64,000 nucleotides of DNA from Malacoraja senta (GCA_038087875.1 CM075989.1:5456001-5520000), one strand, 5' to 3'; positions 28,213 to 50,220 are shown, counted from the first letter of the stretch. Notes: a model not told the origin generated them from the letters alone. Numbers and translations are program-made.

Positions 28213-29345
28213 ATAGATACATAGAAAATAGGTGTAGGAGTTGGCCATTTGGCCCTTCGAGCCATTCAATGTGATCATGGCTGATCATCCACAATCAGTA
28301 CCCTGTTCCTGCCTTCTCCCCATATCCCTTGATTCCGCTAGCCCTAAGAGCTCTATCTAATTCTCTTTCGAATGCATCCAGTGAATCGGCTTCCATGGCC
28401 TTCTGGGGCAGAGAATTCCACAAATTCACAACTCTCTGGGTGAAAAAGTCTTTCCTCATCTCAGTTCTAAATGGCCTACCTTAAGCTTAAACTGTGGCTC
28501 CTGCTTCTGCACTCCCCCAACATCGGGAACATGTTTTCTGCATCTAGCGTGACCAATCCCTTAATAATCTTATATGTTTCCATAAGATACCCTCTCATCC
28601 TACTAAATTCCAGTGAATACAAGCTCAGTCGATCCATTCTTACATCATATGACAGTCCCGTCATCCTGGGAATTAATCTAGTGAACATACACCAAACTCC
28701 CTCAATAGCAAGAATGTCCATCCTCAAATTAGGAGACCAAAACTGCATACAACACTCCAGGTGTGGTCTCACCAGGGCCCTGTACAACTGCAGAAGGACC
28801 TCTTTGCTCCTATTCTCAAATCCACTGGGTTATGAAGGCCATTATCTTTCTTCATTGCCTGCTGTACCTGCATGCTTACTTTCAGTGACTGATGTACAAG
28901 GACACCCAGGTCTTGTTGCACTTCTCCTTTTCCCAATCTGACACCATTCAGATAATAATCTGCCTTCTTGTTCTTGCCATCAAAGTGGATAACCTCACAT
29001 TTATCCACATTATACTGCATCTGCCATGCATCTGCCCACTCACCCAAGCTATCCAAGTCACCCTGCATCTTCATAGCATCCTCTTGACAGTTCACACTAC
29101 CACCCAGCTTCGTGTCATCTGCAAATTTGCTAATGCTACTTTTAATTCCTTCATCTAAATCATTAATATATATTGTAAATAGCTGCGGTCCCAGCACCGA
29201 GCCTTGTGGCACCCCACTAGTCATTACCTGCCTTCTGAAAGGGACCCGTTAATTCCTACTCTTTGTTTCCTGTCTGCCAACCAATTTTCTATCCATGTCA
29301 AGACCCTACCCCCAATATCATGTGCTCTAATTTTGCCCACTAACT
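28213..29345 (-). mobile_element. CR1 LINE 3' half (RT pseudogene)
   Basis: SGVPQGSVLGP, YINDL, KFADDTK and LVRPHLE..QFWSP motifs plus 3' UTR. Confidence 0.93.
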
Positions 29346-36478: not shown

Positions 36479-36678
36479 NNNNNNNNNNNNNNNNNNNNNN
36501 NNNNNNNNNNNNNNNNNNNNNNNNNNNNNNNNNNNNNNNNNNNNNNNNNNNNNNNNNNNNNNNNNNNNNNNNNNNNNNNNNNNNNNNNNNNNNNNNNNNN
36601 NNNNNNNNNNNNNNNNNNNNNNNNNNNNNNNNNNNNNNNNNNNNNNNNNNNNNNNNNNNNNNNNNNNNNNNNNNNNNN
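36479..36678. other. Assembly gap (200 N)
   Basis: Run of N. Confidence 1.
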
Positions 36679-37630
36679 CTATCTTTAAGAGTTCTATCTA
36701 ACTCTCTCTTGAAAGCATCCAGAGAATTGGCCTGCACTGCCTTCTGAGGCAGAGAATTCCACAGATTCACAACTCTTTGGGTGAAAAGGTTTTTCCTCAT
36801 CTCCATTCTAAATGGCCTTCCCCTTATTCTTAAACTGTGGCCCATGGTTCTGGACTCCCCCAACATCGGGAACATATTTCCTGCCTCTAGCATGTCCAAT
36901 CCCTTAATAATCTTAAATGTATCAATAAGATTCCCTCTCATCCTAAATTCCAGTGTATACAAGCCAGGTCGCTCCATTCTTTCAACATATGACAGTCCCG
37001 CCATCCCGGGAATTAACTTCGTGAACCTATGCTGCACTCCCTCAATAGCAAGAATGCCTTTCCTCAAATTTGGAGACAAACTGCACACAATACTCCAGGT
37101 GTGGTCTCACTAGGGCTCTGTACAACTGTAGAAGGACCTCGGTGCTCCTATACTCAACTCCTCTTGTTATGAAGGCCAACTACTATGAGCTTTCTTCATT
37201 ACCTGCTGTACCTACATTCTTACTTTCAGTGACTGATGAACAAGGACACCCTGATCATGTCGTACTTCCCCTTTTCCTAACATGACACCATTCAGATAAT
37301 AATCTGCCTTCCTGTTCTTGCCACCAAAGTGGATAACCTCACATTTATCCACATTAAACTGCATCTGCCATGCATCTGCCAACTCACCCAACCTGTCCAA
37401 GTCACCCTGCAACCTCATAGCATCCTTCTCACAGTTCACACTGCCACCCAGCTTTGTGTCATCTGCAAATTTGCTAATGTTACTTCATCTAAATCATTAA
37501 TGTATATTGTAAATAGCTGTGGGGTCCCAGCATCGAGCCATGCGGTACACCACTAGTCACTGCCTGCCATTCTGAAAGGGACCCGTTAATCCCTACTCTT
37601 TGTTTCCTGTCTGCCAACCAATTTTCTATT
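36679..37630 (-). mobile_element. CR1 LINE, 3' part of the copy split by DIRS
   Basis: RT C-terminal motifs; continues at 49129. Confidence 0.92.
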
Positions 37631-38763
37631 TTACTTCGGAGTCACGTGAGTGACTACGTGAAGAACCCCGCCAGTGCGCCTGGGCGTCATTACGTCAGAC
37701 GCATTGGCGCAAACGGATGCGAGGAGCTAGTGGAATTCCTCTAGTGGAATTGTAGTTTTCAACTACAAGGTAAGTATAAACTTTTTGAAAGTATTTCTGT
37801 GTCCGTTTGCTATGGGTCTGTGGGGATTTTTTCCACAGGCATCATGGAAAAAACGGGCAAGTGGAGGAGGCGAGCGGCACAGCCGGTATAAAGTCGCAAT
37901 ATTGCGGTCGGCGACCAGCCGCCACTGACCACGGTACAGTCGACAGCATAGCGACTGTGGATATTGGGGCTGAAGGGAATTTAGTCAGCACCAGTGGGGC
38001 AAGGCAAAGCCGATAAAAAGCTGCGGGAATGCGGTCGGTAAAGGACTGCCTCATACCCTACAACAGTCGCCGGCTGGGAGCGGGGCGAACTGTGGACATG
38101 TGCATTAAAGAACGGAGCCAGCGTCCGTTGGGTGCTAGGCAACATACAAGTCAGGGTCATGGAGCAAGAGTCAGTTTAGGATTCACCTCCAAGGCTGGAT
38201 ACCACTTTCTGAAGTGGATATTCCAAATGGAGAACCTGTACACAGGTTGCTCCAACGAAACATACTCCAGGAGGAGTGATGTCAGAGCCAGGCTCCAGAA
38301 GCCAGGTCAGCAGCACCTAGTAAAGGGCTGCTTGATAGCACCCTCATTGATGAGGCGTGTGCACAGGGTCAGCAGAGTTTCCAAAATAAGCGAAGACGGC
38401 AGCTGCCAGATGGGCTATTCCTGGCAGTACGATTTGCTGCTCTGTGAGAGTTCTGACCCTGAGTCTGACGGTGAGGCCGATACAAGCGAAGACGGCAGCT
38501 GCCAGATGTTTTATTCCTGGTAGTACGATTCGCTGCCCCGTCAGAGTCAAGAGAGCCACTGGAAAGGACGTGGCCTCTGTGATCAACTATTGTGTCTACC
38601 ATCAGCTCTAGTAGTTTACGATGGATGAAAATGGCAAAAAAGCACGAGATCCAAAGGAACTGCGTATTGCTGAAAGTACTAGCAGTGAACCAAGATAAGG
38701 GGTCAGATGGGCGAAGGCATGTAAGCCTAAGGAAAGTAAACTGCAGAGAATATTGAAGCTGCT

Positions 38764-41440
38764 CGGTTCTTGGTTCTTGGTTCTTGGTTTCTTGGTCCTC
38801 CAAAATATTCCAAATGGAATTTAAACTGGAGGTGGTGGAGGGAGGACTTAAGCCAGAAAGGGTTTTTGGGAAGAAAGAGCTACCTTAAATGTAGTTGCAT
38901 CTGGTTGGGTAACTATGGTAGGGTGGAGATTATTCCATACTTTAATTGTGCGGGGGAAGAATGAATTGCTGTACACATCTGTCTTGGTAGCTGGAATCAC
39001 AAATTGGATCGAATGCCCTCGTCTGCTCCTAATTGGTTTGGGTTTGGTGTAGGTCTTGTAATCTATGTCGAGCTGACCATTTAACATTTTGTAAAAACAG
39101 GTCAAACGGTGAGCTTCACGTCTGTCTTGGAGAGGGTTCCACCCCAGAGAATTCAGAAGTTTGGTAACACTCGCTTCTCTCTCATAGGTGTTAGTAACAA
39201 ATCGAGCTGCCTGTCTTTGGACACGTTCGATGGAAGAAATGTTTTTATTTGTGTATGGGTCCCATGCTGCAACTGCGTAGTCCAAATGAGGTCTAACGAG
39301 GGTGAAGTATAGCTTCTCCTTGACAGAAGTTGAACAATGATGAAAGTTGCGCCTCCGAAAATTTAGGACACCTGTTGCTTTCACCGTTGCATGATGAGTC
39401 TGACCATTCCAACGCAGATCATTCTGCAATTTGATGCCAAGATACTTGGTTTGTTTGGATTCTTCAAGGGTGGTACCAAGTATATTGTACGATGTTTCGC
39501 CTGGATTCCTCTTTCTGGTGACACGCATGGTTTCACATTTGGAAGGGTTGAACTGCATGCCCCATTGGTGTGACCACTCAACCATTGTATCGCGGTCCTT
39601 TTGGAGAGCATCTTCATCATCAGCTGACTTAATTGGACGGTACAGCAAACAATCATCAGCGAATAGTCTGGTCGTGCTTGCGACTTTTTCATGGATGTCG
39701 TTTATGTAAAGCAAAAACAGATGTGGGCCAAGTACTGTGCCCTGAGGTGTACCACTCAACACTGGATGCCAATTGGAGCTCTTTCCGTTCACACACACAC
39801 ACGCTGAAGACGTTTTGTCAGGAAACTGGAAATCCATCGTTTCGTGTTGGAACGAATACCATAGAAGTCAAGCTTCCGAAGCAGTCTCTGGTGTGGGATG
39901 ACATCAAATGCTTTAGAAAAGTTCAGCACTACTAAATCCGTGATGACATTACCATCAAGATGTTTGGCCAGGTCATTTGTCGTCAGGATAAGCTGAGACT
40001 CACATGATCTATGCCTCCTAAATGCATGTTGGTTGTCAGCAAGAATATTATGTTTGCTCACGTGTCGCATCAGATTACTATCAATTACATGCTCCAGTAA
40101 TTTGCAGCAAGTACTTGTTAATGAAACAGGATGATAATTCGCTGGGTTGGTGGTTGAACCTTTCTTAAAGAGAGGAGTGATGTTAGCCTTCCTCCAATCC
40201 AGCGGAACTTCACCTGAGTCAAGCGATTGTTGGAAAATGAACTGCAAAACTGGAGCCAGTTCTTCGGCCGCGATCTTGAGGGCTTGATTCTGTATCTGAT
40301 CTGGTCCAATTGCTTTTGTGGTATTGATGTTGAGCAATAACTTCTTGACACCTTCAACCTCAATTTTAATAGCAGGCATATCAGCATACGGGCTGGGCGG
40401 TAGAACTGGAAATGATGAAGGCTCCATATCTTCCCGGGTGAAAACGTGTTGGAATTGGTTTGCAAGAGCTTCTGCTTTCGCCTGGTCCTCAGTGATCAGA
40501 CAGTTGTTCACTTTAAGCATCTGGACACCAGTGTTGTCTATCCGTCTGGATTTCACATATCTCCAAAAAGCCTTGGGTTGCTCTCCCCCAACAATAGAAG
40601 AAACATGTTGTCTATGAGCACTCCTAATAGCACGATCGACTTGCTTTCGCATTCTAGTAAAATTGTCCCAGTCCAGTTTTGTACCCCTTTTTTTGGTACG
40701 GATATAAGACTTCTCTTTCTTACTGCAGAGACGTTTCAGTTTTGCCGAAAACCAAGGAGAACGCGTACGGCCCTTAATGAATTTTTGAGGAACTTGATTT
40801 GTAACAATATTATTTAAAGAGTTTCTCAGCCACACCCAGTTGTCATTTACGGATCTTTTATCTGGTTGCAGGTTGAAGAAATCTTTTCCCAGTTTTTTTG
40901 CTAAGACTTTAAATTCCTCGCTGTTCACTTTTCTCCAGAGGGAAATTTTACGTGGTGGCTTTGAAGGAACTTTAAGCTTTGTGTGCAGTTTTGCTTGGAT
41001 AATATAATGATCGCTAATTCCAGCACACGATGAAACTTCCGAAATTAAATCTGGGTGAGAAGTGAACAATAAATCTAGAGTATTTTCGGTGCCACTTGTC
41101 TCATCACGTCTGGTAGGGAAAGTGACTTTTTGGGACAGGTGATTTTCCAGAGTAAGGTCAGCTAGGGCTTCCTGGAGAGCTCCTTTTGGTTCACTTTGTA
41201 TGCCGTCAGACCAATCTACACCTGGGACATTGAAATCGCCCCACAGGATGATAAGTGGAGAGCGTGACGAGGCATAAATTTTGGAGATGATTGATCCAAG
41301 GTCTAAAAGAGGCACCATTTTCATGTCAGGTGGTCGGTAAAAGCTTCCGATCTGTAACGACTGACCCTCGAGTGTAGCTTGACACCAGATTTGCTCAGAG
41401 TCGCTGTCTAAGTCTGTACGTTCAAAACAAGGAATGGTAT
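38764..41440 (-). mobile_element. 5'-truncated CR1-group LINE of invertebrate-like type nested in DIRS
   Basis: (CCAAGAA)n 3' tail at 38764-38795; TGCT at both junctions; EN + RT ORF2. Confidence 0.9.
38848..41440 (-). pseudogene. APE endonuclease/reverse transcriptase ORF2 with one frameshift
   Basis: FYRPPD, GDFN, TLDL and SDH (EN); PVSLTS, FSKAFD, PQGTVLGP, FADDC and SFFPRT (RT). A +2 slip in (GT)n near 39790 splits ORFs 39789-41480 and 38848-39837. Confidence 0.93.
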
Positions 41441-42099
41441 TGCTAACTCCGATGATGAACAACTGCAATTTGCAAAACAATGGATGGAGGCCATGGATGG
41501 AGATGCATCAAGTGGCACTAAGGTTGCTATGTAGCGCCCACTTCAAGACTGCTATGTTGCTATGTAGCGCCCACTTCAAGATGAATTGTTTCAGGAAGTA
41601 TGCCATTCGGTCCACCATCAACCCAAAGTTGCAGCAATTCTGTAAAGCCCAGCAATGTGCAGTCATTCAACTTATTCTTCAGAGAAAAAACCTCATGAAT
41701 CGTGGGAAAGAGTTGGATAATGGGGCAAAAACAGCAAAGTTGATCACAACATCAATGGTCGTCAAGTCTGCAAAGAGGACGTATCCTTTCAGACATCATA
41801 CAAAATCCTGGACCGACATCAGGAGCAAATCGACCATTGAAGCAGGTATGCAGTTGATGTCCTGCAGCAGGAAAACGAAAAAGCGTGGGTTTTGCCTGCC
41901 AGGAGCCAGGGACCACAGGTCACTCAGATGACAAAGGAGGTAGGTGGACCTGGTTCTTATGGGAACATATTAAGGCAAAAACAGCCAAATATTGGAAGCA
42001 AATTACTTCAGTTATTATTCTGAGTATTATAGAAAGGTTTCTAATTGATTCGATTCAAATACTGATTTGCCATCCAGCATGTTCCAAGCAGAACACTCC

Positions 42100-43269
42100 A
42101 ATTTCACATAAAAATAATTGATGGAGGTTCAAGCTGAATTGAAAACTTGTTTATAAACAAGTAATTGAAAGGTCGGTTTATCAAAACCACCAAATTGTGT
42201 TTAAAATTTCTCAACCTAAAAAGGTGAGGAGTATTTTAGATCTGACAAGTCTTTAAAATTTTGTGAAGTATAGACACTTCAAAATAGAGACTTTGAGACT
42301 GCCAAACAATTTATTTCAAAAAAGATGTTTTATGGCACTTATAGATCTGAAAGATGTATATTACTTAATGTTTGTTCATTTATAAGATAAAATTATCTAA
42401 AGGAACAATTATGGCAATTCAAAGTTCTGTCTAACGGGTTAACTTCAGTTCCTAGAATTTCACTAAATTGGTAAAAAAAAAATTGCGGCTAATTAGAGTC
42501 CAAGGACAGATGTGGATGGCTTAACTGGATGATGTCCTAATTAGGATGAACAAGAGAATTCGTGAGTTATCTCTCTCAAATTATTCAAACCACTTTTGAA
42601 AGTTGGGTTTAATTCATCCAGAGAGAAATTAAGTTAACAATACTTACAACAATTGATTATTTGATTCAATTGAAAAGGTAGTAATTTACCCAGGGTAAAG
42701 GGTAAAGCTAATTGATGGTTGTATTAAGCAGTTGGAAAAGCAACAATCTTCAATTAAGACAGGTGGCCAGCTTGTTAGGAGAATTAGTGTTATTTCCAGC
42801 AATACAATATGGGCCATTGGACTACCAGCAGCTGCAGACTGCTAAAAGAAAAAACACTAAGATGCATGATGGCCATTTTTTGATAGGCCATGCAATTAAA
42901 CAACAAATGCTGCTTCTGATTGCAGTAGTGGATTTAACATGTCTTCAGTAGTTCAAGCAAGATACGGATTGAACAGCCTTCCATGGTCTTAACAGACTGA
43001 TATCAGTGTACTAGGATTGGTGCCACTGAAAAGGTATCCATCTGTGGAGAGATGGAATATGGAAGAAGTATTATTTTACAGACATGGAGAATCGACGTGT
43101 AAAAGTCTATTGGAAGGCTTATGAGCTACAAGCTTGTTGTTAAATACAACTAATCTGCATGTTCAGTTTCAAATTAACAACACTACAGCAATGTCATGTA
43201 TTAATTGTATGGGTGGAATTTCCATGATAACAAAGAATGGATGTTTAACCTTAAGATTTTTAAATGATA
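42100..43269 (+). pseudogene. DIRS RT / RNase H, heavily degenerate
   Basis: Manual translation gives IDLKDVYY (~42340), FKVLSNGLTSVPRI (~42420), A*LDDVLI (~42520), QTDISVLG (~42995) and HVQFQINNTTAMSCINCMGG (~43160). Confidence 0.85.
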
Positions 43270-46200
43270 CTAGACCAAGTGCAGACCCGTTGGGTCTGGA
43301 CACCGAACGTGCATTTGTTGGGGGGGGGGGGGGGGAAGGCTGTGGCGTCACACTAATCACCCCCTTTCCTCCAAAGCACGTCATCCGGCACCCACAAACA
43401 CATAAACTCATCACACCCCTTGATATTATTTTAATTTTTTAATTTGCTTCTTTTATCCCATCTCCACCCTATCCACTGATGAATAGCCCTCACCTCTCAG
43501 ATGCGTCTAGAGGTGTTGGGGCAGAGGGAAAATTTAATGTTAGAAAAAAAAAATTTGAAGAGGGGGAGGAGGAGGGTCGAGAGGAAGGGGGAGAGAGGAG
43601 AGGGGTGGAGAGAGGAAAGAGAGGATGGGGAGAGAGGTGAAGGAGGGGGGTTGGAGCGGGCGTGCATGAGTCGAGTCATGGGCTGTGAAGAGAGAAGGGC
43701 AGAGAGAGAGAGAGAGAGAGAGATGGGAGAGACAGAGAGACTGGTACACAAAAAAAAGCTTGAGAAACACAGCGGGTGCAGCAGCATCTATTGAGCGAAG
43801 GAAATAGGCAACGCTTTGGGCCGAAGCCCATCCTCAGACTGGTTTTCTACCGAAACGTTGCCTATTTACTTCGATCCATAGATGCTGCTGCACCCGCTGA
43901 TGATATACAGGTTTTTTTTGTGTACCTTCGATTTTCCAGCATCTGTAGTTCCGTCGTAAAGACAGAGAGACTGTTGGCGGGCTGTTTTCCCAACGCGCGT
44001 TTGTGGGAGGGGGGGTGGGCTGCTGCATCACACTCACACTAACCACCCCCCAAACTCACACTAACCACCCCCAAACACACTCGGGGGGGTGGGGTGAGGA
44101 GGGGAGAGGAAGACGGGGTGGGGAGAGAAGAGGGGAGAGGGAGACGGGGTGGGGAGAGAAGAGGAGAGGGGGAGGGAGGGGAGAGGGGGAAGAGGAAAGG
44201 GGAGAGATTGGGGAGGGAGAGGAGATCAGGGTGGGTGAGAGGGAGGGGGAGGAGAGTTTGGAGTGGGAGGAGAGCGGGGAGGGCAGGAAGGGGGGAGAGG
44301 GGGGAGGGGATGAGGGGAAGGGGAGAGGAGTAGGGGGAAGAGAGGGAGAGTGGGAGGGGGAGGGAGAGAGGTGGGGGAGGGAGAGGGGAACAGTGGGGAG
44401 TGAGGGGCAGAGGGGTAGTGGGGAGTGGTGCAAGAGAGAGGTGAAGGGGGTGGGGGGGAGATGGGGATGAAGAGGGGTGGTGGAGGGGGAAGAGAGGGGG
44501 TGGGAGGGGAGGGAGGGGGAGAGGAGAGAGGGGAAGTGGGGAGGGAGAGTTGAAGTAGGAGGGGTAGGGACAGTCCATCTGTTTCCCATTCCCTATCCCC
44601 CCCCCAATCCTCTTTCTCTATTGCCACAAACGTGACGACGCCCTTCGACACAGGCTACGGGGGTGGGGGGGGGAGGGGCTGGGGCTGCTGCAAAGGCATA
44701 TGTAAACGGATTCATTACGATTGGACATCTGTGAGCATTGTGCATTGTGACATCACACAACGGAATCTTTCCTAACATTCTATGGCTGAGCTGTTTTTTT
44801 TAACATTTTGAAATGTTTGGTTTGGGGGGGGGGGAGAGGTATTTTATTTTAAAAAGTGTACATAAACACGACCAAATTTAATCAGGATTGTCTATTCGTA
44901 AAGATAAACGTAATCTCTTTAGAAACGGTAAAAAATATTGGCGTTTCCGCATGCTGTGTGGGCCTAGAGCGGTATCAAAGGGGATTTGTGACACGTCAGG
45001 CGGATGGCAGACACAAGTCAGGCAGACCAAGTGCAGACCCGTTGGGTCTGGACACCGAACGTGCGTTTGGGGCGGGGGGCTGTGACGTCACACTAACCAC
45101 CCGTTGGGTCTGTACCTCCAAAGCAGGGTTGCGGGGTGTGAATCTGGCACCCACAAACACACACACTCATCACACCCCTTGATATTATATTAATATTTTA
45201 ATTTTCTTCTTTTATTCCATCTCCACCCTATCCACTGACGAATAGCCATCACCTCTCAGGTGCGTCTCGAGGGGGGGGGGTGGTGCAGAGAGAGAAAATT
45301 TAATGTTAGAAAAAAAAATTGTGAGGTGGGGGAGGAGGAGGGTTGAGAAGAAGGGGGGTGAGGAAGGTGGGGAGAGAGGAGGGTGAGAGAGGAGAGGGGT
45401 GGAGAGAGGAAGAAGAGGATGGGGGAGAGAGGTAAAGGGGGTGGGTTGGAGCAGGCGTGCATGAGTTGAGCCGTGGGCTGTGAAGAGAGAAGGGCAGAGA
45501 GAGAGAGAGAGGGGAGAGACAGATAGACTGGTACACACAATAAAACTCGAGAAACACTGCGGGTGCAGCAGCATCTATGGAGTGAAGGAAATAGGCAATG
45601 CTTTTGGCGGAAACCCATCCTCAGACGGGTTTTTTCACGAAACGTTGTCTATTTCTTTTGATATAGATGCTGCTGCACCCGCTGAGGTTATGAAGCATTT
45701 TTTTGTGTACCTTTGATTTTCAAGCATCTGCAGTTCTGTCTTAAAGACAGAGAGACTGTTGGCGGGCTGTTTTCCCAACGCGAGTTTGTGGGAGGGGGGG
45801 GCTGCGGCATCACACTCACACTAACCTCCACCCAAACACAGGCAGGGGAGGGGTGGAGAGGAAGACGTGGTGGGGAGAGAAGAGGGGAGAGGGAGACGGG
45901 GTGGGGAGAGAAGAGGAGAGGGGGAGGGAGGGGAGAGGGGGAAGAGGAAAGGGGAGAGATTGGGGAGGGAGAGGAGATCAGCGTGGGTGAGAGGGAGGGG
46001 GAGGAGAGTGGGGAGTGGGAGGAGAGCGGGGAGGGCAGGAAGGGGGGAGAGGGGGGATGGGATGAGGGGAAGGGGAGAGGAGTAGGGGGAAGAGAGGGAG
46101 AGAGGGAGGGGGAGGGAGAGAGGTGGGGGAGGGAGAGGGGAACAGTGGGGAGTGAGGGGCAGAGGGGTAACGGGGAGTGGTGCAAGAGAGAGGTGAAGGG

Positions 46201-47294
46201 GGTGGGTGGGAGATGGGGGTGAAGAGGGGTGGTGGAGGGGGAAGAGAGGGTGTGGGAGGGGAGGGAGGGGGAGAGGAGAGAGGGGGAAGAGTGGGGAGGG
46301 AGAGTTGAAGTAGGAGGGGTAGGGACAGTCCATCTGTTACCCATTCCCTATCACCCCCAATCCTCTTTCTCTATTGCCACACACGTGACGACGCCCTTCG
46401 ACACAGGCTGCGGGGTTGGGGGGGAGGGGCTGGTGCTGTTGCTGCTGCAAAGGCATATGTAAATTGGTTCATTTCGATTGGACATCTTTGAGCATTGGGC
46501 ATTGTGACATCACAAAACGGAACCTTCATTAACATTCTTTTGCTGAGAGCTGTTTTTTTAAAACATTTTGAAATTTCCCCATTCCCTATCCCCCCCACAC
46601 ACGTGGCGACGCCTTTCGACACAGGCTGTGGGGTTGGGGGGGAGGGGCTTGGGCTGTGGGTGCTGCAAAGGCATATGTAAACGGATTCATTTCGATTTGT
46701 CACACGTGTCGCAGGGCGTCGCCACGTGTGTGGGGGTGATAGTGAATGGGGAAATTTCAAAATGTTAAACAAACAGCTCTCAGCAATAGAATGTAAATGA
46801 AGGTTCCGTTTTGTGATGTCACAATGCCCAATGCTGCGGGGGATGGGGGGGAGGGGCCGGGGCTGGGGCCGCCGCAAAGGCATATGTAAATGGCTCCATT
46901 CCGATTGGACATCTGTGACCATTGTGCATTGTGACATCACACAACGGAATCTTTACTAACATTCTACGGCTGAGCTGTTTTTTTAAACATTTTGAAATGT
47001 TTGGTTTGGGGGGGGAGAGGTATTTTATTTTAAAAAGCGTACCTAAACACGACCAAATTTAATCAGGATTGTCTATTCGTAAAGATAAACGTAATCTCTT
47101 TAGAAACGGTAAAAAATATCGGCGTTTCCGCGCACTGCGCGGGCGCGGGGCGGTATCAAAGGCGGGACAAGTCAAGCAGAACGTTGGACGTACAGACGTA
47201 CAGACGTACAGACGTACAGACGTACAGACGTACAGACGGACGGCAGCCAGAGAGTTTTAAAAGTATATAGATAGATAGAAGATAGATAGATAGA
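43270..47294 (-). mobile_element. Non-autonomous Helitron nested in DIRS, internally duplicated
   Basis: Minus strand A|TCtatctatc..tatatacttttaaaactc start and cagacccaacgggtctg hairpin + cacttggtCTAG|T end. Removing it restores DIRS coding sequence (gatA|Taatagtcaga). Confidence 0.88.
44080..44570. repeat. Polypurine G/A-rich tract (duplicated at 45845-46325)
   Basis: About 480 bp of almost pure G/A with many G-runs. Confidence 0.95.
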
Positions 47295-48610
47295 TAATAG
47301 TCAGATTTAGGAAGCCAGATATGACTTGTTTCCATCCAGACTCAATCACCAGTTACAGAGATATGTGTTATGGGACTACATCGGGAGACAGTAGCGATGG
47401 ATGTTTCTCGCTATATTAGGATGGTATGTTGTTATATGCATTTTACTTCATCCTGTCTCATAAATCGGTGTCTGCTTAAAACGAAGCAGTATGCTGCCTC
47501 TAGGGGTATTCGTGGTACCAGACGGGTCTACGCAGCCATGGTTCCCTTTGATATTGAAATTTATGACACAGTTTCTGATAAATGTTCCCAAAAGAAGGAA
47601 TTTACTGGTGTATTCGATAATTGGAGAGTAACATCCATCATCTGCCTGTATGGATGCAGGGTTTAAAAAAAGAGGATTGTCTGGGCATGCTGTGGACCTG
47701 CTTACAGCAGTCTGGCGGAAGAGTACTCAAAAGCAGTACATTTGTGAATCTGAGTTGTGACTCTGTAAATACTGCTTTCCCATTATGTAAAGAATGAGGG
47801 GAAAAAATTTCTGTGTATAAAAGAATATGGAATGTTGTACGGCACATGTCTCAAATATCTTGGATTGACCTCTATTTAATGGGTTGAGGTATAGTGCGAT
47901 TTATTCACACAGAAGTATATTATTCCTCGCTTTTATTTGATGAGGTTGGAAAGACATCCTGTTGAGTCTCGTTCTTTTATTTCCAGATTAATGAAAGGAA
48001 TTTTAATTCCAGACCTTCTAAACCTAGGAGGGAATCTGGAATATAGAATTGTTTTAAGCTACTTCAGCAAAGGAGTCTTGGTACGATTCTGAATTGGTCA
48101 AGTTCAGCATGAAGGTACTCATGTTTATGGCACTTGTAACATTACAAAGTTACAGATTCACAGAAGTACCTCAGGATTATGTTATGTTTTACATTTTATG
48201 AACTACTCAAATGAAGTAGGATCAGGTGTGACAGGATTCAAGATTGTTTTATTAACATATTCTATGGATCCATGTCTATATGTTAAGACATATTTATTGC
48301 AAAAAATTGAGGCTACAAAGATCTTATGAAAACAAGATTGTTTATCATTCACGAAAAACCATACAAGATAGTGTCAGTTTAGACTATTTTAAGATGGTTA
48401 AAAACAAGTTTTAGTTGCTGCACGTGTGAACATTGATGGTTTTACATTCCATTCAGTTTAGCAGCAACATTGACGACCAGGGCGAAGGAAGTCCCGTCAA
48501 TCATATTCTCACAGCCGCCGGGTGATCTAATAAGTTGGTGTTTCAACACTTTTACCATCGGGCTATTGCCAATACGGGGCTGTTTGCAGATACTATATTA
48601 AGTTCTGCTT
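47295..48610 (+). pseudogene. DIRS methyltransferase-like domain and tyrosine recombinase, degenerate
   Basis: KPD.DLFPSRLNHQL (~47310), VVPD.STQPWFP (~47510), LMKGI..SRPSKPR (~47990), F.FHSV.AA (~48440) and ILTAAG*SNKLVFQHFYHRAI (~48505). Confidence 0.85.
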
Positions 48611-49128
48611 AATTTTCCCTGGGTAAAGGGGATACTATTAATTATTTTATTCAAATAAATGAATTACTGCATTTGTGGTACAAATGTTATTATTAATGCA
48701 TTATTGAATATTCTCGTTCCGAGTCAATCAATGCAGTGAGAAGCCGGGATTTGTCTGCGGCATGAAATCACAAAGCTTTAAAATCTTCACGTAGTCACTC
48801 ACGTGACTCCGAAGTAAAATAGTAAGATTAAACGAGAACTTACCTAAGTTTGAAGTTTGATCTTTATTTTATGAGGAGTTACGTAGGTGATTACGTGCCC
48901 ACCACGACCCAACCCTCTATCATAAAGGTCAGATGGAAGTTCTTGTATTACTCATTTTATTATGATACTATATTACTTCGCTTGTTGTTTTTTGTGATTT
49001 CACACCGCTGCTTCGAAGATTGATGCGCAGGCGCACTGGCGGGGTTCTTCACATAATCACCAACGTAACTCCTCATAAAATAAAGATCAAACTTCAAACT
49101 TAGGTAAGTTCTCTTTAATCTTACTATT

Positions 49129-49885
49129 CATGTCAGTACCTACCCCCAATACCATGTGTTCTAATTTCGCCCACTAATCTCCTATGTGGGACCTTATCAA
49201 AGGCTTTCTGAAAGTCCAGGTACACTACATCCACTGGGTGTCCCTTGTCCATTTTCCTAGTTACATCCTCAAAAAATTCCAGAAGATTAGTCAAGCATGA
49301 TTTCCCCTTCGTAAATCCATGCTGACTCGGACCGATCCTGTTACAGCTATCCAAATGTGCTGCTATTTCATCTTTCATGATTGACTCCAGCATCTTTCCC
49401 ACCACCAATGTCAGGCTAGCTTGTCTATAATTCCCTGTTTTCTCTCTCCCTCCTTTCTTAAAAAGTGGGATAACATGAGCTACTCTCCAATCCACAGGAA
49501 CCGATCCTGAATCTATAGAACATTGGAAAATGATCACAAATGCGTCCATGATTTCTAGAGCCACTTCCTTGAGTACCCTGGGATGCAGACCACCAGGCCC
49601 TGGGGATTTATCAGCCTTCAGTCCCATCAGTCTACCCAACACAGTTTCCTGCCTAATGTGAATTTCCTTCACTTCCTCCGTCACCCAAGGTCCTCTGGCC
49701 ACTCGTACATCTGGGAGATTGTTTGTGTCTTCCTTAGTGAAGACAGATCCAAAGTACCGGTTCAACGTCTGCCATTTCCTTGTTCCCCATAATAAATTCA
49801 CCTGTTTCTGTCTTCAAGGGACCCACATTTGTCTTAACTATTTTTTTTCCTCTTCACATCCCTAAAGAAGCTTTTACTATCCTCC
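49129..49885 (-). mobile_element. CR1 LINE, 5' part of the copy split by DIRS
   Basis: KSPGP.GLHPRVLKE, PLFKKG, QHGF and DFQKAFDKVPH. The junction matches the intact copy at 29270-29340. Confidence 0.92.
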
Positions 49886-49889
49886 ATAA

Positions 49890-50220
49890 ATGGAGTGGAT
49901 GCGGAGAGGATGTTTCCACTGGTGGGAGAGTCTAGGACCAGAGGTCATAACTTCAGAATTAAAGGGCGCTCTTTTAGAAAGGAGGTGAGAAAGAACTTCT
50001 TTAGTCAGAGGGTAGTTAATCTGTGGAACTCATTGCCACAGAGGGCTGTGGACGCCAAGTCAGTGGATATTTTTATAGCAGAGATAGACAAATTATTAAT
50101 TAGAATGGGTATCAAGGGTTATGGGGAGATGGCAGGAAAATGTGATTAGGAGGCACAGAACAGCCATGATTGAATGACGGAGTAGACTCGATGGGCTGAA
50201 TGGCCTAATTCTACTCCTAA
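49890..50220 (+). mobile_element. CR1 LINE 3' end
   Basis: MFPLVGESRTRGH...RVVNLWNSLP. Confidence 0.88.

Follow-up and report, generated by a model that had tools for sequence, protein, structure and literature searches.

In the available part of the account by Malicki et al. (2020; PMC7192593), Dictyostelium DIRS-1 carries gag, reverse transcriptase/RNase H/methyltransferase (RT/RH/MT) and tyrosine recombinase (YR) genes, together with an internal complementary region (ICR) complementary to both of its tips; there, a construct with dead coding genes could not be fully mobilised in trans. In the part of Piednoel et al. (2011; PMC3266345) drawn on here, which includes its Table 3, 23 of 28 DIRS elements begin and end with NTT, most commonly ATT, and integration is described as passing through a 3-bp junction. 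Here we describe a full-length DIRS1-superfamily retrotransposon at positions 37628-49128 of a 64,000-nucleotide stretch of the cartilaginous fish Malacoraja senta (GCA_038087875.1 CM075989.1:5456001-5520000; hereafter the window), lying inside a long interspersed nuclear element (LINE) of the CR1 family. Its genes are several times more damaged than the repeat that it interrupts, and we think the balance tips, if not by much, towards a copy that was already broken at insertion and was probably copied and integrated by the proteins of an intact family member.

The element is close in design to the mollusc elements LgDIRS1, LgDIRS3 and AcaDIRS1/2 of that table, with which it shares ATT...ATT ends and an AAT circle junction. 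Its ICR arms measure 37 and 80 nt (39-86, 42-86 and 44/45-88 in LgDIRS1, LgDIRS3 and AcaDIRS1/2, respectively), its right extension 47 nt (48–49), its inverted terminal repeats (ITRs) ~62 nt (66–70) and its net length ~4.8 kb (4.7–5.8 kb). Unlike these, it has lost all of its open reading frames (ORFs), contains two nested inserts and resides in a cartilaginous fish, the short-ITR design being otherwise listed in the table for molluscs. This mollusc-like geometry led us to consider horizontal transfer of the family as a candidate explanation. The vertebrate elements tabulated there, in contrast, have ITRs of 132–167 nt and extensions of 26–34 nt, and Dictyostelium DIRS-1, alike in ICR and gene content, has ITRs of ~316 nt and a TTA junction. 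A precedent for a tyrosine-recombinase retrotransposon that moves without proteins of its own is TOC1 of Chlamydomonas, described as a non-autonomous member of the DIRS order in the available part of PMC9940879. However, PMC3266345 places TOC elements in the PAT superfamily; their repeats differ and they lack an ITR/ICR arrangement, whereas the present copy is full-length and eroded by point lesions.

Architecture of the element and its ends

The element and the CR1 LINE that hosts it comprise the following features, with the nested inserts given further below.

36684-37627, minus strand: downstream part of the RT ORF of the host CR1; 316 codons with 4 frameshifts and 1 stop by frameshift-aware alignment to CR1 profiles
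37628-37689, plus strand: left terminus and left ITR, starting with ATT; its first 37 nt mirror the left ICR
37760-38764, plus strand: 5' part of a gag-like ORF1, placed by position alone between the left ITR and the downstream gag match
41554-41655, plus strand: conserved C-terminal stretch of the gag-like ORF1, matched by a profile of 25 relatives
41978-43238, plus strand: broken RT and RNase H; 11 frameshifts and 12 stops in 416 codons, with the Tyr of YxDD a stop
47323-47637, plus strand: broken MT domain, taking up the pol frame that ends at 43264; 4 frameshifts and 2 stops
47662-48609, plus strand: broken YR; 11 frameshifts and 7 stops in 302 codons
48784-48897, plus strand: ICR, with a left arm (48784-48820) and a right arm (48818-48897) whose AAT overlap is the circle junction
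48898-49020, plus strand: spacer from ICR to right ITR, with 4 differences from the family majority among those listed
49021-49128, plus strand: right ITR (49021-49081) and 47-nt right extension, ending with ATT
49129-49884, minus strand: upstream part of the RT ORF of the host CR1; 249 codons with 2 frameshifts, no internal stop and a TGA at the junction

This is a genuine DIRS1-superfamily element, as a preliminary description of the locus had claimed, and a fossil of known design with the known ATT junction; the ITRs, ICR, NTT ends and RT-RNase H-MT-YR domain order all bear that out, and both nested inserts that the description mentioned are present, their removal leaving ~4.8 kb. Its right end at 49128 holds, although its left start at 37626 does not, the strict start being the ATT at 37628 and the preceding CT being target DNA. 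The short ITRs are inverted and non-identical (53/63 between 37628-37689 and reversed 49021-49081; 23/25 over the last 25 nt of the left ITR), and ATT stands at both ends (37628 and 49126) with no target-site duplication (TSD) beyond it. In a self-search of the DIRS parts all terminal matches were inverted and terminal direct repeats were absent. Assignment to PAT or Ngaro, which would call for split direct repeats, was rejected on that result.

The reversed ICR indeed equals the right end fused to the left end, and its reading as a record of the circle junction is supported: the reverse complement of 48784-48820 matches 37628-37664 at 37/37 positions (39/39 with the CT preceding ATT), that of 48818-48897 matches 49050-49128 at 77/80 (two substitutions and one gap), and the two arms overlap on AAT at 48818-48820. 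Pairing of the ICR with the right end forms a long stem (z -18.6) that none of 100 shuffles equalled in stability. At the nucleotide level, the ICR and right extension are matched best by the intact elements L017, L067, L071 and L072 (79–93% over 52–101 nt), of which L017 and L067 are also among the top pol matches; aligned protein pieces of these four are mostly just 25–50% identical and thus mark different families. Since ICR/right-extension sequence (48810-48880 and 49070-49128) is nevertheless 86–93% identical over 55–79 nt to the L067, L071 and L017 families, these comparisons point to a cis signal under strong constraint. Contigs of the sequencing runs X5, X6, X7 and X1 commonly show a family variant from which 2 nt are missing at 48845 in the ICR and likewise at 49101 in the right extension, so that ICR and tip evidently change together.

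The genes are readable through profiles of intact relatives alone. Pfam, run on nine raw DIRS frames, returned no RT, RNase H, MT or YR match (its sole match had E 0.066), and word-indexed protein searches with an RT stretch and a YR stretch yielded no relative among 13 and 2 candidates. A phmmer search with one frame gave 397 matches, and of 24 long ones scanned all contained RVT_1 and seven Pfam Dam. From an alignment of 22 related proteins we reached the best 80 of 314 confirmed loci, whose ORFs provided profiles for YR (21), pol (30) and gag (25). These match the window in order: gag at 41554-41655, RT/RNase H at 41978-43235, MT at 43217-43264 and then 47314-47646, and YR at 47647-48606, with best independent E-values (iE) of 3e-6, 6e-22, 2e-15 and 3e-9, respectively. 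Thus RT and RNase H are followed by an MT domain and a YR ORF forms the 3' end, all of them broken, and the earlier claim that these genes are present in cryptic form stands. The pol profile runs through positions 549-564 before the second nested insert and 573-683 after it. Support for gag consists of one 34-codon match, and the 5' part at 37760-38764 has no significant match to the profile of relatives. The YR profile, built from downstream ORFs of the relatives, matches in four segments (iE 3e-9 to 4e-5); the YR label rests on the HSTR-type motif that PMC3266345 names for such downstream ORFs, not on Pfam.

In the YR the first Arg motif is deleted, HSTR is broken and the Trp of AAGW is a stop; loose ends of X6 and X1 at 48132 retain the Arg motif that is lost here. 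We take YxDD, HSTR, AAGW and the Arg motif to be catalytic motifs of RT and YR. The gag region also contains two tandem duplications, at 38388-38547 (96-nt period, 87.5% identity) and at ~41523-41581 (~26 nt, near-exact, by eye), and the RNase H-MT linker at 43220-43238 is ~35–37 codons shorter than in intact relatives. Exact terminus patterns had no match in metagenome and viral contigs, and the pol alignment found no relative among 91 candidates from viral contigs.

Lesions, ends and the age of the insertion

A repeat interrupted by an insertion predates it, and afterwards both decay neutrally. Over 565 codons of the host CR1 we count 6 frameshifts and 2 stops, one of these at the junction, near and distant profiles agreeing, while frameshift-aware alignment of the DIRS genes finds 26 frameshifts and 21 stops in 823 codons. 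The lesion rate of the DIRS genes (47/823) is therefore 4.0 times that of the CR1 (8/565; p 2.6e-5). For frameshifts alone the ratio is 3.0 (p 0.007) and for stops alone 7.2 (p 0.0008), and under four stricter penalty settings it stays at 2.85–3.2 (p<=0.0033). The aligner made no call on a held-out intact element left unmutated, 7–12, 14–17 and 24–30 calls at 4%, 8% and 12% simulated decay in pol (~630 codons, three replicates each), and just one frameshift and no stop in 839 codons of the nested LINE, at 34% profile identity. Mutational opportunity, by a rough model, is alike in DIRS and CR1 (stop 0.042 vs 0.041; homopolymer load 1.33 vs 1.25). Because the host CR1 and the nested LINE are nearly intact, we rejected the view that the lesions stem from assembly error.

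Termini that are reset by replication, as the published model has it, provide a second clock, which here reads 5 differences in 284 nt, or 1.8% (95% confidence interval 0.6–4.1%). The contrast between well-matched end signals and wrecked ORFs, noted in the preliminary description, amounts here to 47 lesions in 823 codons against 5 differences in 284 nt, and the order of divergence, judged from these comparisons, runs from the ends (~2%) through the host CR1 (~4–6%) to the interior. Because the DIRS genes carry ~3–4 times more lesions than the older CR1, the copy was likely already non-coding when it inserted. The suggestion that mobilisation came after coding decay accordingly finds moderate, if indirect, support in the less damaged CR1, a comparison that the description had not proposed; its companion, a multi-copy non-autonomous lineage, does not.

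Under the published model, RNA of this copy would have been reverse-transcribed, its left ITR rebuilt from the right ITR and both tips rebuilt on the ICR into a circle, after which the recombinase would have crossed over within the 3-bp ATT. Such rebuilding would have reset the ends, which would then date the last jump, and left the older damage in the interior. As the catalytic motifs of RT and YR are destroyed in this copy, we infer that both enzymes were supplied in trans by an intact family member. The available part of PMC7192593 reports trans action of the DIRS-1 RT and integration of supplied cDNA by endogenous proteins; it also reports that DIRS-1 cDNA is mainly linear and that junction PCR failed.

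Seven sequencing runs share words of 47310-49128, and contigs of four of them (X1, X5, X6 and X7) were compared with the window over 47245-49300. X6 and X7 hold many family contigs, and since nearly all of their depth has another letter at several interior sites, the window's copy is evidently not among them. Indels relative to these contigs at 47374, 47502, 48000, 48032 and 48324 coincide with independently called frameshifts (among 12 of 21 indel rows listed), and a joint at 47743-47804 marks family copies without a ~40-bp insertion. Five interior pieces of X6 and X7 differ from the window at 73/739 positions and X1 pieces of ICR and spacer at 7/242, while a 100-nt ICR stretch has no substitution against an X1 contig of depth 65. 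Two X1 contigs share lesions with the window: one at 47937-48092 (depth 2, four substitutions, two gap letters) agrees with it in three substitutions (48067, 48071 and 48075) as well as in the deletions at 48000 and 48032, and one at 47305-47437 (nine substitutions, no gap) has its deletion at 47374. Contig depth is much higher at the ends than in the interior, and just 22 of 30 bins are covered by X5, a pattern suggestive of short non-autonomous derivatives; we did not use this, as contig depth and holes cannot rank parts.

Several observations weigh against a copy that was dead on arrival. The CR1 differs from its paralog (36684-37627 vs 28350-29292) by 11.4% substitutions, up to ~6% per copy, and a duplicated block in the nested Helitron-like insert is 8–12% diverged, so that an insertion age near 5% is possible; if that block was duplicated in place, the insertion would predate the age given by the end clock. 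Of the 15 frameshifts called in MT and YR, at least 5 are absent from high-depth family contigs, as is the ~40-bp insertion. The dominant family thus appears to be less broken and not the decayed lineage, though a possible source of helper proteins. The lesion-sharing X1 contigs have no flanks and could fit an ortholog as well as a sibling, and the two X1 interior contigs differ from the window at just 13/287 positions. The X6 majority differs at no fewer than 88 of 2056 bases (4.3%, among 40 of 126 rows listed) and by itself shows little contrast between interior and ends, and the comparison of 73/739 with 7/242 mixes runs. Finally, the truncated DIRS-1 construct of PMC7192593 did not complete retrotransposition, which its authors, in the part available, attribute to failed marker splicing.

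A rival account is an ordinary autonomous insertion and neutral decay in place, which we regard as unlikely, although a serious competitor. The AT-rich interior would then have gathered lesions faster, and the ends would look young by chance, through low methylation of CpG-rich, promoter-like sequence or through conversion between ICR and termini. Consistent with this, lesions are missing from the high-depth family contigs, the lesion-sharing X1 contig is compatible with orthology, the observed/expected CpG ratio is 1.0–1.7 at the ends but 0.16–0.64 in pol and YR, and the window is biased to A/T relative to the X6 majority (A>G 25 and T>C 17 vs C>T 7 and G>A 4, in the rows listed), as neutral decay would leave it. 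Decay in place must, however, contend with a CR1 that is necessarily older and yet has 2.9–4.0 times fewer lesions at similar mutational opportunity, and with the ICR and ends, where three or fewer events in 228 nt have a probability of 0.02 at 4% decay and 0.0006 at 6%. The almost intact LINE within the element likewise argues against a local hypermutable zone or an assembly artefact.

Two further histories were considered. A mosaic, in which a young element contributed the 3' end (ICR, spacer and right ITR, from which the left end was in turn rebuilt) and the interior is old and decayed, whether through a template switch while RNA was being reverse-transcribed or through gene conversion by an old copy afterwards, seems improbable to us. 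It would account for the little-changed spacer, which is not rebuilt on the ICR, for the 7/242 against 73/739 differences, and for one X1 contig in which 48694-48757 departs from the family at eight places but 48758-48813 at none. However, the same contig shows no difference in 48657-48693 either, no left-end breakpoint can be mapped, and selection on cis signals across repeated mobilisation yields the same picture. (One X1 contig diverges from the window upstream of 48657 in a way that is not interpretable.) Excision of an old decayed copy as DNA by a helper recombinase, and its re-integration without an RNA step, would likewise bring a damaged element, bounded by exact ATT junctions, into a younger CR1, but its ends would escape resetting on the ICR and ought to have diverged as far as the interior; with 3 differences observed in 114 paired positions, we give such cut and paste hardly any credence. 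Insertion of an already broken copy, helped in trans, remains our preferred reading, and the mosaic may be counted as a variant of it. Its extension to a full-length, coding-dead DIRS1 sub-lineage that kept moving on helper proteins, with selection holding just ICR, spacer and ITRs, is one that we offer tentatively, and would not expect to hold on present indications.

The junction core and the choice of target

CTATT stands at both genomic junctions (37626 and 49124) and in the ICR, and the flanks join up again as a CR1, as the preliminary description had noted; measured against the paralog at ~29286, the rejoined CR1 neither gains nor loses a base. The comparison copy at 29285, given there as CTATT, instead reads ttttCTATCcatgtc (CTATC). 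Empty CR1 sites in loose-end consensuses (~49140) are likewise CTATC in X5 (63 contigs) and X1 (1), and ctctATCc, again with C, in X6 (36 contigs). Since paralog and empty sites carry C, the T at 49128 is derived, and it converts a CR1 Trp codon to TGA.

To view this junction against others, we used the relatives' loci, 53 of 80 of which have inverted repeats; 42 left junctions were viewed, one was skipped, and merging of duplicates left 32; L033 was excluded as an unrelated repeat. Of these, 29 begin with ATT and three with GTT. Beyond ATT, the match in the 29 extends by 0 nt in 11, 1 in 13, 2 in two and 3 in three, while 10 of 11 right junctions end with ATT and one with ATA, all 11 with no extension. 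Within the family, left ends aligned to the ICR go no further than 48820, where ATT ends, in 214 X5 contigs (flank agreement 0.35) and three X1 contigs, counts that come from 24 of 1342 loose-end rows listed and leave longer matches uncounted. The GTT and ATA junctions suggest a crossover inside the trinucleotide that tolerates mismatch. The mismatched junction of L064 probably keeps the target's third base, and on this one case the CR1 target here was most likely already ATT before insertion.

The 5-bp CTATT crossover core that had been proposed does not survive these comparisons. A need or preference, at integration, for 5 bp that circle junction and target have in common would suit the CTATT at both junctions and in the ICR, but the CR1 family site is CTATC, family left ends stop at ATT, and related left junctions extend by 2 nt or more in just 5 of 29, with GTT and ATA among the junctions besides. 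We consider such a requirement very improbable, and the extra CT identity at this insertion is most likely chance. Related elements seem to recognise purine-ATT in the target and not a longer stretch of identity: the base preceding ATT is a purine at 26 of 27 related sites (three GTT rows and two probable duplicates dropped), including all five whose element's own base is a pyrimidine. Both -1 and -2 match at 4 of the 27, and a 2-nt extension is thus not rare. The window's own target, T-ATT-C, is atypical in having a pyrimidine before ATT, and extra identity could have aided this one site.

Nested inserts, flanking repeats and what the locus may mean

38765-41450, minus strand: nested insert 1, a 5'-truncated APE+RT LINE (Pfam Exo_endo_phos_2 and RVT_1); boundaries approximate
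43270-47294, minus strand: nested insert 2, a composite Helitron-like element with 5' TC and a 3' hairpin plus CTAG, between A and T

Both inserts probably arrived after the DIRS element, and neither showed a TSD longer than 7 nt. The nearly intact LINE (839 codons) has a 7-bp tandem tail, is 32–34% identical to CR1 profiles and is single-copy in the window; by these comparisons it appears to be a young and distinct family. The TC start, the hairpin and CTAG end and the A/T target of the second insert are presumably Helitron hallmarks. It has a second 3' end at ~45024, the duplicated block mentioned above (GA-rich, ~1.6 kb) and palindromic pieces that resemble SINEs; it also folds back at 46491-46835, and (GACGTACA)n/(GATA)n repeats lie close to its 5' end. 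The upstream part of the host CR1 is 91% identical to P0156 over 179 aa, and the named protein that this CR1 matches best comes from the stingray Hypanus sabinus (77%). The 5' end of the host CR1 is adjoined by another CR1 3' fragment, oppositely oriented (49886-50140, plus strand), and an assembly gap of 200 N (36479-36678), ~950 bp left of the element, conceals its 3' end.

The structure of the element and its ATT rule are textbook DIRS1, and the evidence comes from one locus. In the literature searched, which did not extend to subscription journals or Repbase, we found no report of the family from cartilaginous fish and none of a full-length decayed element of the ITR/ICR type mobilised in trans. 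The contribution made here lies in the dating: a copy that carries more damage than the repeat around it had probably lost its genes before it arrived, and this points to complete trans mobilisation of a DIRS element of this type, where the experiment in the available part of PMC7192593 showed trans action for the RT step only. If a coding-dead sub-lineage has indeed kept moving, it would prove at the genomic level that every step of the DIRS1 cycle, even integration, can be carried out in trans, and the mismatch between ICR and tip would be a usable insertion clock, akin to LTR-LTR dating. Should sibling copies confirm it, the family would map the minimal cis signals of these elements, and the host-repeat and ICR clocks together would provide a general test for DIRS fossils.

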